This document shows positions 4,175 through 11,077 of a stretch of 64,000 nucleotides of DNA, piece by piece. Positions within the stretch are counted from its first letter, which is position 1; every line of letters begins with the position of its first letter. This stretch comes from a virus, in the IMG/VR virus record IMGVR_UViG_3300017917_001940, positions 1 through 64,000 of that record, one strand, 5' to 3'. The notes below the pieces were generated by a model. It saw only the letters and a list, made by a program, of their open reading frames with translations, made no database searches and was not told the DNA's origin. The position numbers were made by a program, and so were the translations under genes.

Positions 4175-4845
4175 TGTTTACTTGCAATTATTGTAAAAAA
4201 GAGTTTGCTAAAGAAACTTCAATTGCGGTTCATATGTGTGAGCCAAAACGTCGTCGCATGGAAAAAGACGAGCGCGGAGTACAGTTAGGATTCCAGGCAT
4301 ACATTAAGTTTTACGAAACAATGCAAGGATCAGCACGTTTAAAAACATTTGAAGACTTTGCTGAAAGTGCATACTATAAAGCATTTGTTAAATTTGGTCG
4401 CTATTGTTTGGTCATACGTGCCGTTAACCCTGCACGTTTTATGGACTGGCTGTTAAAGAACAACAAGAAACTAGATCGGTGGTGCAGTGATCAACTGTAC
4501 ACAGAATACCTGGTGCACTATGTAAGAGTTGAGCATGTGGATGACGCACTGGCTCGTAGCATCGAGTGGAGTATAGCCTGGAGCGAGGAACATCAGGCAC
4601 CTGCACATGATTGCCTACGTTATGGCAATACTAATACCATATGCTATGCACTGACAACAGGACGCATAAGTCCTTGGTGCATTTATAATAGTGATTCGGG
4701 TGTAGAGTTTCTGGGCAGTTTAACAGAAGATCAAATTGCCATGATTTGGCCGTATATTGAAAGTGACGTTTGGCAGAAGAAGTTTAGAGACTATCCGGCT
4801 GACGTGGAGTACGTTAAAGACATATTGAAGAAAGCAGGTTGGTAA
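4174..4845 (+). CDS. Hypothetical protein with N-terminal zinc-finger-like motif
   Basis: FTCNYCKKEFAKETSIAVHMC (C2-H-C pattern). Confidence 0.55.
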   Translation: MFTCNYCKKEFAKETSIAVHMCEPKRRRMEKDERGVQLGFQAYIKFYETMQGSARLKTFEDFAESAYYKAFVKFGRYCLVIRAVNPARFMDWLLKNNKKLDRWCSDQLYTEYLVHYVRVEHVDDALARSIEWSIAWSEEHQAPAHDCLRYGNTNTICYALTTGRISPWCIYNSDSGVEFLGSLTEDQIAMIWPYIESDVWQKKFRDYPADVEYVKDILKKAGW

Positions 4846-5207
4846 TGGACTTACTATTACTTGTAGGATTATTTGTAATAAAACATTTTATTGTGGACTT
4901 TGTGCTACAGACCCAAGAGGAAATTGAGCACAAAGGCACATACTTAGACTGGCGCGGTGTCAAGCACAGCGTAAAACATGGTATTGGCACACTGCTCATA
5001 CTCTGGGGCATCGGTGCTAGTTTTGAACTTTCTTGGATGTATGGTGGGCTAGACTTACTCATACACTATCACATTGATTGGGCCAAACAAAATATCACAC
5101 GTAATCTCACCGCTAACAATCGTTCATTCTGGATTTGGTTAGGTTTCGACCAAACTCTGCACTATTTGACTTACATCATATTCATTGCTATAATGATTAC
5201 AACATGA
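4839..5207 (+). CDS. DUF3307-like membrane protein (probable start 4845)
   Basis: KHFIVDFVLQT, HYHIDWAK, GFDQTLH His/Asp motifs between hydrophobic helices. Confidence 0.7.
   Translation: MVMDLLLLVGLFVIKHFIVDFVLQTQEEIEHKGTYLDWRGVKHSVKHGIGTLLILWGIGASFELSWMYGGLDLLIHYHIDWAKQNITRNLTANNRSFWIWLGFDQTLHYLTYIIFIAIMITT
5166..5194 (+). promoter_or_regulatory. sigma70-type promoter inside the DUF3307 3' end
   Basis: TTGACT-17nt-TATAAT; ATG 5204 lies 9 nt downstream. Confidence 0.7.
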
Positions 5208-5938
5208 CACATCCATTGATTTATGTAAATGGATGCAGTTACAGTGATCAACACTATCATCCAAAGATGTTAGATAATACCTATGCTGAACATTATGGAC
5301 GTATGGTCAACGGTTATGTAATAAACCGAGCTCGAACCGGTAGTTGTAATCGACGCATTATTCGAACCACAGCACATGATGTTATTGAACAAAGAAAATT
5401 AAACCCTAGCCAGCATATTATCGCACTAATTCAATTAACATTCGAAATAAGAAATGAACTGTGGATCGATCATATTCAACCACCAGAGCCTGTAGAGTCA
5501 CACTTTCAAACACATCAATTTAGCAAGTTAATCAACTGGCGAGATCGATTATTAAAAAATGAATCCATATCCAATGATCAGGGTTTCTTAAAAAAGTGGA
5601 GCGAGGGGCGAGCGTTTTTCTACAATGCTTATGCTGAGCGCATAAACCTATTGCTCGATGTGTTAATGTTAACCAAACTATTCGATTCTCTTGATATAAA
5701 ATACTTAATTTTTCAAGGTCCAATTGCAGAAAAATTAGAAGATGAATATCTTAAAGATTTTTTCTTGGAGCAACTAGATAACACTAGAATACTTGATTTT
5801 GAAACGTTTGGTTTTTGTGACTGGGCCGACAAGCAAGGTTTTGATCCATTGGATCTAAGCGACCCTAGAGAAATTGGACATTACGGCCCAGATGCTCATA
5901 TTGCTTTTGCAAAAAAATTCTTGTATAATAAGTTATGA
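5204..5938 (+). CDS. SGNH-like hydrolase (start re-called from 5135 to ATG 5204)
   Basis: IYVNGCSYS block I-like; C-terminal IGHYG; ATGA overlap with upstream stop. Confidence 0.5.
   Translation: MTHPLIYVNGCSYSDQHYHPKMLDNTYAEHYGRMVNGYVINRARTGSCNRRIIRTTAHDVIEQRKLNPSQHIIALIQLTFEIRNELWIDHIQPPEPVESHFQTHQFSKLINWRDRLLKNESISNDQGFLKKWSEGRAFFYNAYAERINLLLDVLMLTKLFDSLDIKYLIFQGPIAEKLEDEYLKDFFLEQLDNTRILDFETFGFCDWADKQGFDPLDLSDPREIGHYGPDAHIAFAKKFLYNKL
5901..5929 (+). promoter_or_regulatory. sigma70-type promoter
   Basis: TTGCTT-17nt-TATAAT, 5 nt before ATG 5935. Confidence 0.65.
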
Positions 5939-6504
5939 GCGCAGATATTGACATTGACTTGGCAGATAGAGAACAGTTACTCAAACTGATCAACGCTATT
6001 CCGGCACGTCAATCAAACGGACGTAAGCATAACTCAGGTGTTTACATAACAGACATACCTTATGATCCTATCAACCAGTGTGCCGCAATAGACTACGAAA
6101 CTGCTGAACAACTGGGTTACTTTAAAATTGACTTGCTAAACATGAGTGTTTATGAGTTGGTTACTAGCCCTGAGCACTATGAAGAAATGCTCAACAAGGA
6201 GCCACCATGGTCACGCTTGTGGACAGATCCTGAGTGGGCCAGCAAACTAGCACACGTGGGTAACTACACTGATTTACTTGCTTCAATGAAACCAGACAGC
6301 ATACCACGCATGGCCGCATTTATTTCAATCATACGTCCAGGTAAAGCACACTTACAAAATAAACCGTGGAAGGAAGTATTCGACACAGTTTGGGATGGTG
6401 ATGCTAGTAGAGGATTTGTGTTTAAGAAAGCCCACGCTATAAGTTACGCGGCACTGGTAGCACTACATATGAATTTACTCAACACGCCTAACGAGGGTAA
6501 TTGA
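5935..6504 (+). CDS. Miniature DNA polymerase III alpha (DnaE)-like protein
   Basis: ADIDIDL, KHNSGVYI, GYFKIDLL, IIRPG, FVFKKAHAISY match C-family polymerase motifs in correct order. Confidence 0.7.
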   Translation: MSADIDIDLADREQLLKLINAIPARQSNGRKHNSGVYITDIPYDPINQCAAIDYETAEQLGYFKIDLLNMSVYELVTSPEHYEEMLNKEPPWSRLWTDPEWASKLAHVGNYTDLLASMKPDSIPRMAAFISIIRPGKAHLQNKPWKEVFDTVWDGDASRGFVFKKAHAISYAALVALHMNLLNTPNEGN

Positions 6505-6852
6505 TTTACGCTTGGATTTTTTGCGAGCCATTTCTGCTAGACTGCACACAGGGCCGTGAAGTATTTCTAAATCTTTATTGATAAAAGTACGCAGGTAAGT
6601 TTTAAACGGATCCCATTCTTGCTTTAAGAAGATATTAATGGGTATGCTACGATTGCTTTCCCACCACCAAATGTTGGCTAATTCTACAAATTTACGCTTG
6701 AGATCAACGTCTTGTATGGCGCCAAAGTCGTAAATGGTAGTAATTAAATCGTCTTGATTTTGAATGATTCCTACATATTCATTAGTGGCGTAGACGCACA
6801 ACGTAATAAACGGATACTGATCAGTTAATTTTGCGAATAAGTCATTGCCCAT
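6475..6852 (-). CDS. Hypothetical phage protein
   Basis: 125-aa ORF with TAAATA box 9 nt upstream on the minus strand. Confidence 0.6.
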   Translation of the reverse strand: MGNDLFAKLTDQYPFITLCVYATNEYVGIIQNQDDLITTIYDFGAIQDVDLKRKFVELANIWWWESNRSIPINIFLKQEWDPFKTYLRTFINKDLEILHGPVCSLAEMARKKSKRKSITLVRRVE

Positions 6853-6896: not shown

Positions 6897-8015
6897 ATGT
6901 ATTCAACCGCTGTTTATCTTTACCAACAAAAAACTCGAGTACTAATGATGGACACCGGTGCCGGCACTACATTCACATATAGGTATGATCCCGTGTACGC
7001 TAAAAAACTAACAATTAATAAAGGTGTTGACAACGTGATTTTGTTTGAATTTATCAACCAAGATCAAAAGCCTGTTAACATTACTGGTAGCACTCTTGTA
7101 TTCCGTTTGATCAGTCAAGACGGACTAGAGTTATTAAACGAAACTCCAATGGTTATATTAAACGCACAGTATGGACGTGCCAAAGTAACCATTCCAGCCA
7201 GCGATTTAAACACCATTGAGGCTCAACGTGCTAGTTACTCGATCAGCCGAGCAAGTGGTAACTTATACGAAGCAGTATTCACTGATGCACAAGCCGGCGC
7301 ACGTGCTGACGTGGACATTGTAGACAGCGTTTACCCAGAATTTGTACAAAGTGCGTTTTTAACCATACCTACCACCCAACTTGGAGCACAGGGACAAGCA
7401 GGTGGCAGTTCTAGTATGTTTTATCCAGACTGGGCACTGCAATCAAGCAACCCAATGCCTAACAGTTATGCACCTGTGCAATCAACCGAATACTTTTCCA
7501 GCTATATTGAGCCAACTAGTGCTGTGACCACTATCCAAATGGATCTAGTTGGATATACAGGATCGATCAAAGTACAAGCGGCAGAGAACTATCAAAGCAT
7601 TTGGTACAATGTTACAGAAAGTTTCCAATATCTAAACAAAACCGGTACAATTCATATTAATGTGCTAGGTTGGCATCCATTGTTACGTGTGGGCTTTAAT
7701 AACTCGGTTTATACCACTGGATTGGGCGGAAACCAACGCATGGGTTGGCCTGCACAAGCAAACGTCACTGTGGAAAACGGTGTGGTTACCAATGTAGGAG
7801 TTGTCATCGGCGGTTATGGATACCTAGCACCTCCACTATGTGAAATTGTGGGCGACGGTGCAGGTGCTGTACTCGAAGCCGAAGTTAATAACGGATCTGT
7901 ATCAGCCATTAATGTCGTTAGTGGTGGTGCAGGTTATCGTCCAAACCCTCCAACTAACATCGGCGCAAGTGTGGTAATTAGTTGTGGTCGTGCTGAGAAT
8001 TTACGCTATCGTTAA
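6897..8015 (+). CDS. Putative virion structural protein (baseplate/tail-associated, beta-rich)
   Basis: Late promoter; N-terminal GVDNVILFEFINQDQKPVNITG Ig-like domain; C-terminal GGYGY/SGGAGY repeats. Confidence 0.45.
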   Translation: MYSTAVYLYQQKTRVLMMDTGAGTTFTYRYDPVYAKKLTINKGVDNVILFEFINQDQKPVNITGSTLVFRLISQDGLELLNETPMVILNAQYGRAKVTIPASDLNTIEAQRASYSISRASGNLYEAVFTDAQAGARADVDIVDSVYPEFVQSAFLTIPTTQLGAQGQAGGSSSMFYPDWALQSSNPMPNSYAPVQSTEYFSSYIEPTSAVTTIQMDLVGYTGSIKVQAAENYQSIWYNVTESFQYLNKTGTIHINVLGWHPLLRVGFNNSVYTTGLGGNQRMGWPAQANVTVENGVVTNVGVVIGGYGYLAPPLCEIVGDGAGAVLEAEVNNGSVSAINVVSGGAGYRPNPPTNIGASVVISCGRAENLRYR

Positions 8016-8035: not shown

Positions 8036-8773
8036 ATGAAGTTTAAAAAGATAGTAGGCTTTGGCGACAGTTGGACCTACGGTGACGAACTATTAGATCC
8101 CAACTTACTTAAAGAACATCCAGACGCACATTTCTGTTGGGATCAAAATACTGACTATAGAGAACGCAACTGTTTTCTTGGCCAATTAGCTGATCATTAT
8201 AATATTCCATACGAAAACTTTGGTATCCCCGGCGGTAGTTTAACATCAACTGAGTGGACATTTCAATGGTGGTTAGATCACGAAACATTCGATCTTAGTG
8301 ATTGTTTGGTATTAATTGGACTTACCAATGCCGACCGCATTACACACTATAACCCTAATCACGTACATTATTCAAACGATCCACCGTGGAACAAGTTTAT
8401 TCATAGTAGCTGGGTAGAGTTTGGTTCCAGCGTTATTCCAGAAGAATGGCGCACCATGGTCAAACAAGAGATTGTATTAACCACTTGCCCAGAATTAGAA
8501 ATGATTAACTTCCACAATGCTGTGTTGTTCTTTGATGGTATTGCCGCTAGGAACAACATTAATCTATTACAATTTAACATCATGCCCGCACCACGTCCGA
8601 TTGAACATGCACCCACGTATATTTGGCCGGACTTTTCCTGGACCATGTATTTCAGAGATCATCCTGGAAACCAAAAAAGAGAATTAGTCAAACCAGATGG
8701 ACATCCAAATGAAATTGGACATGGTTTGATAAAAGACCGCTTGATCGCACACATAGAATCCTGTACAATGTAA
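8036..8773 (+). CDS. SGNH-like hydrolase
   Basis: IVGFGDSWTYG block I; C-terminal PDGHPN. Confidence 0.6.
   Translation: MKFKKIVGFGDSWTYGDELLDPNLLKEHPDAHFCWDQNTDYRERNCFLGQLADHYNIPYENFGIPGGSLTSTEWTFQWWLDHETFDLSDCLVLIGLTNADRITHYNPNHVHYSNDPPWNKFIHSSWVEFGSSVIPEEWRTMVKQEIVLTTCPELEMINFHNAVLFFDGIAARNNINLLQFNIMPAPRPIEHAPTYIWPDFSWTMYFRDHPGNQKRELVKPDGHPNEIGHGLIKDRLIAHIESCTM
8741..8769 (+). promoter_or_regulatory. sigma70-type promoter for primase
   Basis: TTGATC-17nt-TACAAT, 6 nt before ATG 8776. Confidence 0.6.
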
Positions 8774-8775
8774 GG

Positions 8776-9747
8776 ATGCTTGACATCCTTGCTTATCTAC
8801 CTGCTAAACGTAAAAAGTCTTCTGGCGGGTGGATTTCATTTAACGCACCATGTTGTGTACACAATGGCGAAAGCCAAGATCGGCGTCAACGTGGCGGACT
8901 AATGTTAAATGATCAAGGTTGGAGTTATCACTGCTTTAATTGTGGATTTAAAACCAGCTTTGTATTAGGGCGCCATTTGTCGTTTAAGGCTCGTAGTTTG
9001 CTACGTTGGCTCAATGTGCCGCAAGAAGAAATTGAGCGAGTGAACTTAGAAAGTCTCAAACACAAAAGCATCATAGGCATATTAGATGATCGCCAGCGTG
9101 TGGCCAATGAGTTACAAAGCATACACTTTGACAATCGAGAAATAGTTAATGCTGACTTGATAGGTCCAGGTGATGAGCATTATTGGGAATATTTAAGTCG
9201 GCGTCGTGTGCCCATGGATTATCCATTTATGAGATCCTTGGATAATCTTGGACGTGATCGCATTATTATTCCATTTACATACGATAATCGCATTGTAGGA
9301 ACTGCTGTGCGTTTTTTAGACAATCACACACCCAAGTATATTAACGACATACAGCATGGATATGTGTTTGGCACAGACTTACAACGTGAATCATGGCAGT
9401 ACGCACTGGTAATGGAAGGTGTGTTTGATGCACTAAGCATAGGTGGTCTGGCTGTGTTACACGCTGACGTCAATGACGCACAGGTCAAGCTCATACGTAG
9501 TTTAGGCAAAGAAGTTATTGTCGTGCCCGATCAAGACGAAGCTGGTATGAAGCTAGTAGATCGCGCAGTGGAATTAAACTGGGCAGTATCAATGCCTGAA
9601 TGGCCCGGCTGTAAAGATGTAAATGATGCTGTGATAAAATATGGTCGAATGGCCACACTAATATCCATACTAGCGGCCAAGGAAACTAGCAAGATAAAGA
9701 TTGAATTAAGGAAGAAGCAAATTGCCAAACACTTGCGTAGTGAATAA
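8776..9747 (+). CDS. DNA primase (Zn finger + TOPRIM)
   Basis: CCVH...HCFNC zinc domain; VMEGVFDAL, PDQDEAG, KDVND TOPRIM motifs. Confidence 0.85.
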   Translation: MLDILAYLPAKRKKSSGGWISFNAPCCVHNGESQDRRQRGGLMLNDQGWSYHCFNCGFKTSFVLGRHLSFKARSLLRWLNVPQEEIERVNLESLKHKSIIGILDDRQRVANELQSIHFDNREIVNADLIGPGDEHYWEYLSRRRVPMDYPFMRSLDNLGRDRIIIPFTYDNRIVGTAVRFLDNHTPKYINDIQHGYVFGTDLQRESWQYALVMEGVFDALSIGGLAVLHADVNDAQVKLIRSLGKEVIVVPDQDEAGMKLVDRAVELNWAVSMPEWPGCKDVNDAVIKYGRMATLISILAAKETSKIKIELRKKQIAKHLRSE

Positions 9748-11077
9748 ACCACGTGTGGTTATTGCTACTGTTCCATTTGTTGATGAGAATACTCCATTGG
9801 CGGCGCCCGCTGTGTTAAAAGCCGCGCTAACTGCCGCTGGTATCGAATGTGTGGGTTTGGATCTTAACATAGAGATTTATAATAAAATACAACACAATCC
9901 AAACAGACATTTGTTTCTTGACTTTTTCTATAGACAAATAATACATGAAGAAATAGTAGAAGATCTGACTAAAATGTTAGACTTTTATGCTCAAGAACTA
10001 CTAGCACACAGACCCACTATCATTGGATTAAGTTTATTTTCTAGTAATTCCCAAACTTTTACTGCATGGCTGAGTGCGGTTTTACGCAATCAAGAACCCA
10101 CAGTTAAAATAGTCATCGGCGGCCCTGGATTAGAAACCCTGGAAAATTCTTTATTTAAATTTCCTGATCGAATAAAACAGCTAGGGCTAATTGATGATTA
10201 CATTACCGGCGACGCAGAAACGTCTTTTGTAGAATATGTTCGTGGCAATTACAATTACCCTGGAATTAATTCTACTAATTGGCAAGCTAATGCTAACTTT
10301 GATCAATTGCCCATGCCAGATTATTCAGATTATAGGTTCTTTAGATATGGTTATCCATTATTGCCTATTATAGACAGCAGAGGTTGTGTACAAAATTGTG
10401 AGTTTTGTGATGTTATTGCATTTTGGAAAAAGTTTCAATATCGTACAGCTGACAACATTTTTAATCAAATGTTCGCGCTAATTGAAAAATATCGTGTGTA
10501 CCGGTTTCAATTTTCCAGTAGCATTTGTAATGGCAATTTAAGAGAATTTAAAAAACTTGTCAAGCTCATAGCAGATTATAATGACAGTGTAAATGACAGT
10601 GAGCAAATACACTGGGTTGGATCTTTTATAGTGCGTCCATCTAATCAACATCGAGAAGAGTTGTGGCAACTAATAAAGAAAAGCAACGGATTCTTATTAA
10701 CTGGTGTTGAAAGCATTGTAGAGCATGTGCGTATTAACCTAGGCAAGAATTTCACTAATGCAGATTTAGATTACCATTTGGCTATGGCTAAAAAGTACCA
10801 AGTGCCCACAAACTTATTAATGATAGCGGCTTACCCAACCGAAACTGATGAAGATTATCAAACAACAATTCAGTGGTTTAAAGATCATCAAGAATATGCT
10901 AATAATACCATAATGAAAGTACAGTGTACTTTACCGGCAATATTGCCCGGAACAAAATTAGAAGCAAACATCAACCCGGAGCAATTTAACAACAACCATA
11001 GCCGACGTCGTCAGCATGCCCAACATCTTGAAGAAGTAATAAAACAATGTGGATTCGAAATACAAACATTCTTTTAA
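9722..11077 (+). CDS. B12-binding domain radical SAM protein (probable GTG start 9740)
   Basis: PLAAPAVLKA, VIGGPG cobalamin-binding features; SRGCVQNCEFC CxxxCxxC motif; GVES. Confidence 0.8.
   Translation: MPNTCVVNKPRVVIATVPFVDENTPLAAPAVLKAALTAAGIECVGLDLNIEIYNKIQHNPNRHLFLDFFYRQIIHEEIVEDLTKMLDFYAQELLAHRPTIIGLSLFSSNSQTFTAWLSAVLRNQEPTVKIVIGGPGLETLENSLFKFPDRIKQLGLIDDYITGDAETSFVEYVRGNYNYPGINSTNWQANANFDQLPMPDYSDYRFFRYGYPLLPIIDSRGCVQNCEFCDVIAFWKKFQYRTADNIFNQMFALIEKYRVYRFQFSSSICNGNLREFKKLVKLIADYNDSVNDSEQIHWVGSFIVRPSNQHREELWQLIKKSNGFLLTGVESIVEHVRINLGKNFTNADLDYHLAMAKKYQVPTNLLMIAAYPTETDEDYQTTIQWFKDHQEYANNTIMKVQCTLPAILPGTKLEANINPEQFNNNHSRRRQHAQHLEEVIKQCGFEIQTFF

Follow-up and report, generated by a model that had tools for sequence, protein, structure and literature searches.

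The closest described counterpart of the gene reported here is found in group 2.2 jumbo phages, whose minimal DNA polymerase III (Pol III) alpha is split (Iyer, Anantharaman, Krishnan, Burroughs and Aravind, 2021, Viruses 13:63; PMC7824862). The system is composed of (i) a C unit of ~190 amino acids (aa), involved in Mg2+ and template binding, and (ii) an N unit of ~170 aa, involved in nucleoside triphosphate (NTP) binding, the two being encoded at distant loci. No further Pol III domains are present, relatives carry a family B polymerase, and orthologues occur in PA5oct, RaK2, 121Q, GAP32, Atu_ph07 and other phages. The DNA analysed in this study is a stretch of 64,000 nucleotides (hereafter the window; positions 1 to 64,000 of IMG/VR record IMGVR_UViG_3300017917_001940). 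It is phage DNA of ~40% G+C and makes up the initial 64 kb of a viral contig of 129.8 kb, whose completeness is estimated at 38%. A 189-codon open reading frame (ORF) of the window encodes the C-terminal part of a Pol III alpha-like polymerase (hereafter the C-half), and a remote ORF of the same contig encodes the N-terminal part (the N-half). The C-half is a member of the already described split system and does not represent a new kind of system; very probably, it forms the C-terminal subunit of a minimal nucleotidyltransferase of the C family (Pol III alpha/DnaE-like), which consists of two subunits and belongs to a jumbo phage of group 2.2.

Both halves are already contained in the PHROG database (PHROGs 11778 and 11127), and many GenBank records annotate one or both of them as DNA polymerase III alpha or DnaE-like. 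The present copy differs from those of the group 2.2 system in that it originates from an uncultured phage and is preceded by an insertion composed of a DUF3307 gene and a gene for a 245-aa protein. We also identified natural single-chain forms, in which the two halves are fused; no mention of such forms was found in the portions of PMC7824862 consulted.

The C-family replicases of known structure, DnaE and PolC (e.g. E. coli alpha 2HNH/5FKW, Thermus 3E0D and Geobacillus PolC 3F2B), share with the phage enzyme a Pol-beta-type palm with a GS motif, a DxD pair and a third aspartate, the fingers motifs RPG and F(N/K)K(S/A)H, arranged in an identical order, and a common structural core (Z ~20 for the N- and C-halves together). 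In contrast to DnaE and PolC, the phage palm is distributed over two polypeptides, has no PHP domain, no thumb and no equivalent of E. coli residues ~641-739, is devoid of the clamp-binding, HhH, OB and tau-binding parts, and scores far below the NCBIfam DnaE cut-offs. In cyanobacteria, the dnaE gene is split across the genome and its products are joined by protein trans-splicing, mediated by a split intein. This also yields a C-family polymerase from two distant genes, but the cyanobacterial break lies at another site and the product is a full-length DnaE, whereas the phage halves have neither intein fragments nor room for them, so their association would have to be non-covalent. The DnaE of Bacillus subtilis is a primer-extending second polymerase beside PolC, and is full-length and clamp-binding. 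It offers a functional analogy only, that of a C-family enzyme accompanying a different main replicase, and may serve as a model of hand-off between the two.

Motifs, fold and conservation of the C-half

The C-half and its motifs are located in the window as follows:

5935..6504, + strand: C-half of the split minimal Pol III alpha-like polymerase, Mg2+- and template-binding; 189-codon ORF, ATG to TGA
5944..5958, + strand: DIDID (D4, D6 and D8), aa 4-8; equivalent of DnaE PDFDxD, with D4 and D6 as the metal-binding DxD pair
6025..6048, + strand: KHNSGVYI, aa 31-38; equivalent of the DnaE THAGGIVI strand (comparison with P0404 and superposition)
6118..6138, + strand: YFKIDLL (K64 and D66), aa 62-68; equivalent of E. 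coli KFDFLG (HMMER alignment to 2HNH)
6331..6342, + strand: IRPG, aa 133-136; equivalent of the E. coli fingers motif FRPG, ~638-641 (profile alignment)
6421..6447, + strand: FKKAHAISY, aa 163-171; equivalent of E. coli FNKSHSAAY, ~754-762 (profile alignment)

A first-pass annotation of this DNA, made from the letters alone, had recognized a 189-aa ORF with a clean start and stop, carrying five Pol III alpha motifs in order. Both observations were confirmed: the ORF extends from the ATG at 5935 to the TGA ending at 6504 on the + strand, and all five motifs are present in the same order. Used as a single sequence, the C-half gave no matches in Pfam, NCBIfam or the PDB. It matched phrog_11778 ("DNA polymerase") over the full length (E 3.1e-52; residues 3-183 on profile positions 7-192 of 197) and showed weak resemblance to a DnaE-like PHROG of 1190 positions. 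When 20 kb of the window were compared with cultured phages by Megablast, no match was returned; the nearest cultured orthologue of the C-half, from the PA5oct group, is 47% identical.

An exhaustive HMMER search yielded 352 representative relatives at 50% clustering, and conservation was determined in an alignment of 83 diverse full-length homologues, 27-63% identical to the query. Residues K64, D66 and P135 are invariant, while D4, D6, D8, H32, G35, R134, K164 and H167 are each at least 90% conserved; all of these positions belong to the motifs recognized in the first-pass annotation. A PDB search with the profile of the 83 homologues matched solely Pol III alpha chains (E. coli 2HNH, E 2e-6, and those of Thermus and Mycobacterium tuberculosis), pairing KIDLL with KFDFLG (~553-558), IRPG with FRPG and FKKAHAISY with FNKSHSAAY of the E. 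coli protein. D66 corresponds to the third catalytic aspartate (E. coli D555). Through the fused form, DIDID aligns to PDFDID of P0404, a PHP-bearing DnaE fragment, in which THAGGIVI is the counterpart of KHNSGVYI. The five motifs are true Pol III alpha motifs and not chance matches, and the three catalytic aspartates noticed in the first-pass annotation are indeed kept, each aligned to its DnaE equivalent.

The comparison of a predicted structure with the DnaE palm, which that annotation had suggested as a check, gave a concordant result. The AlphaFold model of the C-half (predicted local distance difference test, pLDDT, 95.7) superposes end to end on DnaE, and Pol III alpha or PolC-type chains account for all of its 14 top Foldseek matches, although with marginal E values (1e-3). 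In VIA-align superpositions, 182-185 of the 189 residues are taken in, with Z 9.5 for Thermus alpha 460-841 (184 residues), Z 9.1 for M. tuberculosis DnaE1 418-811 and Z 7.7 for E. coli alpha 399-784 (182 residues), compared with Z 3.8 for the top unrelated fold.

These superpositions also indicate what was pared away. The 189 residues of the C-half are the equivalent of ~386 residues of E. coli alpha (~399-784). The distance from DxD to HxxG (DIDID to KHNSGVYI) is 22 residues, against ~105 in the P0404 DnaE fragment, which means that the thumb is excised; similarly, the stretch from RPG to F(N/K)K(S/A)H is shortened to ~25 residues, E. coli having ~110, and part of the fingers is therefore excised. 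The C-terminus of the C-half is equivalent to E. coli position ~784, and the clamp-binding, HhH, OB and tau-binding parts all lie beyond it; no PF02811 (PHP) match was found in the ORF. The earlier description of a skeletonised C-family palm lacking PHP, clamp-binding and OB domains is accordingly retained. Its second part, a self-contained miniature enzyme, is abandoned, as the GS motif is located on a distant ORF.

The C-half gene is live and under strong purifying selection. The ORF is intact in all 80 related IMG/VR loci (185-197 aa), and in each of them it starts three residues ahead of the first aspartate (M-x-x-D-x-D-x-D). The median ratio of non-synonymous to synonymous substitution rates (dN/dS) is 0.089 (pairwise Nei-Gojobori; 116 pairs with unsaturated dS), and the overall proportions of non-synonymous and synonymous differences (pN and pS) across the 80 loci are 0.155 and 0.774, respectively. 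At 90% identity the family falls into 5,934 clusters, and the best 120 are 186-199 aa long. The short length of the protein and its lack of a Pfam or NCBIfam match of its own might suggest a decaying fragment of a formerly full-length dnaE; this reading has next to no probability, being refuted by the purifying selection (dN/dS ~0.09, with synonymous sites near saturation) and the 80 intact loci. The thousands of family clusters and the invariant or nearly invariant catalytic residues also argue against decay, in agreement with the first-pass annotation, which had rejected it and proposed dN/dS and homologue length as checks.

The palm is divided between two distant genes

A scan of the whole contig with Pfam DNA_pol3_alpha (PF07733) gave one match above the cut-off, at 107198-107413, in the following ORF:

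106886-107416 of the contig (G000:C1:106886-107416 = L003:1189-1719), + strand: N-half, GS-motif subdomain; outside the window, at a distance of ~101 kb on this contig

The N-half ORF encodes 176 aa when read from the first TTG, and 170 aa from the likely ATG (L003:1207). It scores 29.2 bits against PF07733, covering profile positions 22-94, and is a full-length match of phrog_11127 ("DNA polymerase"; E 8e-39), while its NCBIfam DnaE scores are 15-25 bits versus cut-offs of 434-1806. The C-terminal sequence of the N-half, ...GVGRGSSVASYVLYKIGVHRIDSMFYDLNVEEFLR*, comprises the nucleotide-binding motif hG[GS] together with the helix, both of which directly precede PDxDxD in DnaE. In N-half homologues GRGS is invariant, and 119 of 120 of them end with [FL][LI][RNK]. 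The family numbers at least 7,989 clusters when grouped at 90% identity, mostly of 170-173 aa.

When the break is bridged by way of the fused relative, GVGRGSS...IKEFIK-DNKEGIYNIA-DFDID aligns continuously with GPGRGSG...FERFL-NPERISLP-DFDID of DnaE. Judged from this alignment, the break falls in the linker of ~9 residues that connects the GS-motif helix to the DxD strand, within the Pol-beta-type active site. As the GS motif is located on one protein and the metal-binding carboxylates on the other, neither of them has a complete active site of this type. The remainder of a dnaE gene, whose presence elsewhere the first-pass annotation had named as evidence against its own proposal, was thus found as far as the essential palm subdomain is concerned.

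The two halves occur together in cultured jumbo phages. Orthologues of the C-half, covering at least 95% of the query, were counted in 96 records, compared with 93 for the N-half, and the tallies by genus are the same; the one Klebsiella record absent from the N-half tally is probably the 85.7-kb partial record phiKp_21. The two genes are never close in these phages, being separated by 31-224 kb. In PA5oct the orthologues of the two halves are EST35_0220 and PQE65_gp196. The surroundings of the N-half gene are conserved as well (L003:612-2597; contig 106309-108294), and comprise an ORF of ~200 aa, the N-half, an ORF of ~115-160 aa and a GroES-like co-chaperonin; the gene order around the N-half of PA5oct (gp197 to gp194) is identical.

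Rare single-chain forms were found on metagenomic scaffolds, with the following representative:

L084:1066-2193, ENA scaffold: fused mini Pol III (clusters P0300, P0391 and P0392)

In the 375-aa fused protein P0300, residues 79-180 correspond to the N-half (E 5e-20) and residues 190-372 to the C-half (E 5e-37), and Pfam DNA_pol3_alpha spans residues 97-207 without interruption. Two further fused clusters, P0391 and P0392 (376 aa, 78-81% identical), are located on separate ENA and Logan contigs. The nearest C-half relatives of the fused forms (51-59% identical) are split forms, and the fusion may be secondary. No match was obtained when viral contigs were scanned with the N-part of this form.

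The fused form was folded with AlphaFold using an alignment of 34 rows containing both halves (A4), in which the N-half tails are slightly misplaced; a larger alignment (A3) was dropped, as MAFFT put the N-halves onto the C-terminal region. The model (predicted template modelling score, pTM, 0.79) superposes as a single rigid body on M. tuberculosis DnaE1 (5LEW), Thermus alpha 291-830 (3E0D) and Geobacillus PolC (3F2B), with Z 20.0-20.7 and a root-mean-square deviation of 3.1-3.5 A over 286-290 residues. These Z values are twice that of the C-half alone (9.5). The next folds after DnaE and PolC are generic Pol-beta-type nucleotidyltransferases (MenT toxins and Cid1), with Z of at most 3.5.

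No third piece of the polymerase was detected. The contig itself, at 38% completeness, contains no Pfam match for PHP (PF02811), the fingers or HhH (PF14579), and the complete genomes of the relatives PAC2 (286 kb) and Phosso (469 kb) contain no PHP (PF02811) match. Each of these two phages has one DNA_pol3_alpha match, the N-half, which stops at about profile position 96, and the sole sub-threshold trace of the fingers in either genome lies inside the C-half gene of Phosso. Both PAC2 and Phosso encode a family B polymerase (PF00136). In PAC2 (PP408249.1, 202949-206726) the family B signal extends over two frames of 825 and 379 aa, ~2.5 kb apart, which suggests an intervening element, e.g. a homing endonuclease or an intron.

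Proposed activity and rival explanations

In the proposed mechanism, the C-half would supply the metal-binding residues D4, D6 and D66 together with the remnants of the fingers (RPG and FKKAH), which are predicted to touch the template and the nucleotide. The N-half would contribute the helical N-terminal palm subdomain, whose GRGS (hG[GS]) motif is expected to hold the triphosphate of the incoming nucleotide. We infer that the halves pair non-covalently, as a heterodimer, and rebuild one catalytic centre, which would carry out two-metal-ion nucleotidyl transfer onto a 3'-OH. Since it has no thumb, no PHP domain or site for a proofreading partner, no clamp-binding motif and no OB domain, such an enzyme should be distributive and non-proofreading. 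There is about an even chance that it is an accessory DNA polymerase serving replication or repair, e.g. in the extension of short primers or in gap filling. This role is suggested because the relatives possess a family B replicase and the C-half gene is placed in a module with primase, helicase and UvsW/UvsY genes.

Several points weigh against the view of the C-half as one subunit of a two-piece polymerase. The fused forms are known solely from short metagenomic scaffolds (2.4-5.9 kb), and the DnaE-like packing of their model may reflect DnaE structures learned by AlphaFold, in which case it demonstrates compatibility and is no proof. No PF00136 match was found on the contig of the C-half (38% complete). 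The E. coli fingers segment ~641-739, which we take to be the site of the LRRAMGKK arginines contacting the nucleotide, has no counterpart in the C-half, and with this segment missing, templated polymerization is not assured. Finally, the literature searched holds no study showing that the halves bind each other or polymerize.

The truncated fingers are among the features that would also suit a template-independent nucleotidyltransferase assembled from the same two pieces, which could tail or cap nucleic acids, or synthesize a nucleotide signal or a counter-defence product. The missing thumb, clamp and OB parts, the family B replicase already present in the phage relatives and the generic nucleotidyltransferases that come next after DnaE and PolC in the fold search (Z <=3.5) are compatible with this activity. 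We nevertheless regard it as unlikely, given that RPG, FKKAH and K64, which are DnaE-specific motifs contacting DNA or nucleotide, are conserved, the gene resides among primase, helicase and UvsW/UvsY genes, and the likeness to DnaE/PolC (Z ~20) is far above that to any other nucleotidyltransferase. It is highly improbable that the 189-aa protein acts alone, whether as a self-sufficient mini polymerase or nucleotidyltransferase or as a decoy of the host replisome. Its own start and stop, three catalytic aspartates, confident solo fold (pLDDT 95.7) and strong conservation might be taken in this sense; against this, the hG[GS] motif, which defines Pol-beta-type active sites, is encoded by the partner ORF, the co-occurrence with the N-half is near-perfect, and the halves are fused in three natural clusters. 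The C-half also lacks the DnaE surfaces for the clamp, tau and epsilon, which leaves no basis for a decoy role. The stand-alone nucleotidyltransferase and the decoy, both put forward in the first-pass annotation, thus found no support.

Covalent joining of the halves after expression, by a split intein or RNA trans-splicing, has a precedent in cyanobacterial dnaE, but is scarcely credible here. The end of the N-half and the start of the C-half both lie within the 9-residue DnaE linker, leaving no room for an intein; no intein or Hint Pfam domain was found in either half, and Rfam detected introns or ribozymes neither in the window nor around the N-half gene. Moreover, the start of the C-half is kept in 80/80 copies and the [FL][LI][RNK] end of the N-half in 119/120.

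A bolder version of the two-subunit reading holds that the mini Pol III is not a back-up polymerase but the catalytic core of a dedicated phage machine, with an activity novel for C-family enzymes. This machine might include the convergently encoded 125-aa protein (phrog_11637) and the C2H2 zinc-finger protein encoded upstream, and its activity could be, for example, primase-coupled primer extension with hand-off to the family B replicase, or template-independent transfer directed against host defence. We consider this distinctly unlikely; if true, a minimal C-family polymerase could be studied directly in the fused form, a single chain of 375 aa.

The putative two-subunit enzyme is the most compact version known of the catalytic core found in the bacterial replicase, and may serve as a model of the minimal needs of a C-family polymerase. 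The location of the break inside the active-site linker, the natural single-chain forms as ready-made constructs and the near-constant convergent gene may be of use for biochemistry. The core may also hint at the state of a C-family polymerase before the gain of the PHP, thumb, clamp-binding and OB parts. The case for it as a model of minimal needs and of this earlier state was already made by Iyer et al. (PMC7824862).

Genetic neighbourhood of the C-half

The C-half gene lies within a replication/recombination module. Upstream there is a gene for a C2H2 zinc-finger protein (phrog_11058), and downstream genes for a structural protein and a Toprim primase, accompanied in relatives by a DnaB-type helicase; in PAC2, UvsW and UvsY are encoded upstream of the C-half. 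The remaining features of this region are:

4839-5207, + strand: DUF3307 membrane protein, inserted between the C2H2 gene and the C-half
5201-5938, + strand: 245-aa ORF with no Pfam match, inserted between the C2H2 gene and the C-half
6475..6852, - strand: convergent 125-aa ORF of unknown function (phrog_11637), sharing 30 nt with the 3' end of the C-half
8036-8773, + strand: second 245-aa ORF, with a weak GDSL-lipase match (E 0.01), between the structural gene and the primase

The first-pass annotation had assigned the C-half its own promoter, which our analysis did not support. Promoter-like sites occur in the region at chance frequency (12 found versus 10.1 expected), and a perfect TATAAT (5924-5929) ends merely 5 nt ahead of the ATG, too close to speak for an independent promoter. 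The ATG of the C-half shares the sequence ATGA (5935-5938) with the stop codon of the upstream ORF, and co-transcription with this ORF, combined with translational coupling, appears more likely.

Of the 80 related loci, 79 carry a homologue of phrog_11637 on the strand opposite to the C-half gene, and the two genes mostly overlap. This homologue also adjoins the C-half in PAC2, Phosso and PA5oct, and a weak match was found beside the fused form. Searches of Pfam, the PDB and the ESM Atlas with the 125-aa protein gave nothing usable; judging by its gene position, it is a possible accessory partner of the C-half.

The DUF3307 gene and the ORF at 5201-5938 were identified in just 12-15 of the 80 related loci and constitute a variable insertion in a conserved replication module. 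The latter ORF shows a weak, unconfirmed SGNH-like hint, consisting of a short P.EIGH near the C-terminus that matches the ORF at 8036-8773, which itself occurs in just 10 of the 80 loci. Paralogy of the two 245-aa ORFs was considered and rejected, as no similarity beyond the shared P.EIGH was detectable.

Two further genes of this region deserve mention. The Toprim primase gene (8776-9747) is overlapped by the gene immediately following it (9722-11077, + strand), encoding a 451-aa radical S-adenosylmethionine (SAM) protein with a B12-binding domain, unusual company for replication genes. The structural protein (6897-8015, + strand; 372 aa), encoded within the replication module, has a BppU_N-like N-terminus and a C-terminal domain common to baseplate-wedge and virion proteins; its PA5oct counterpart is annotated as structural and has been verified by mass spectrometry.

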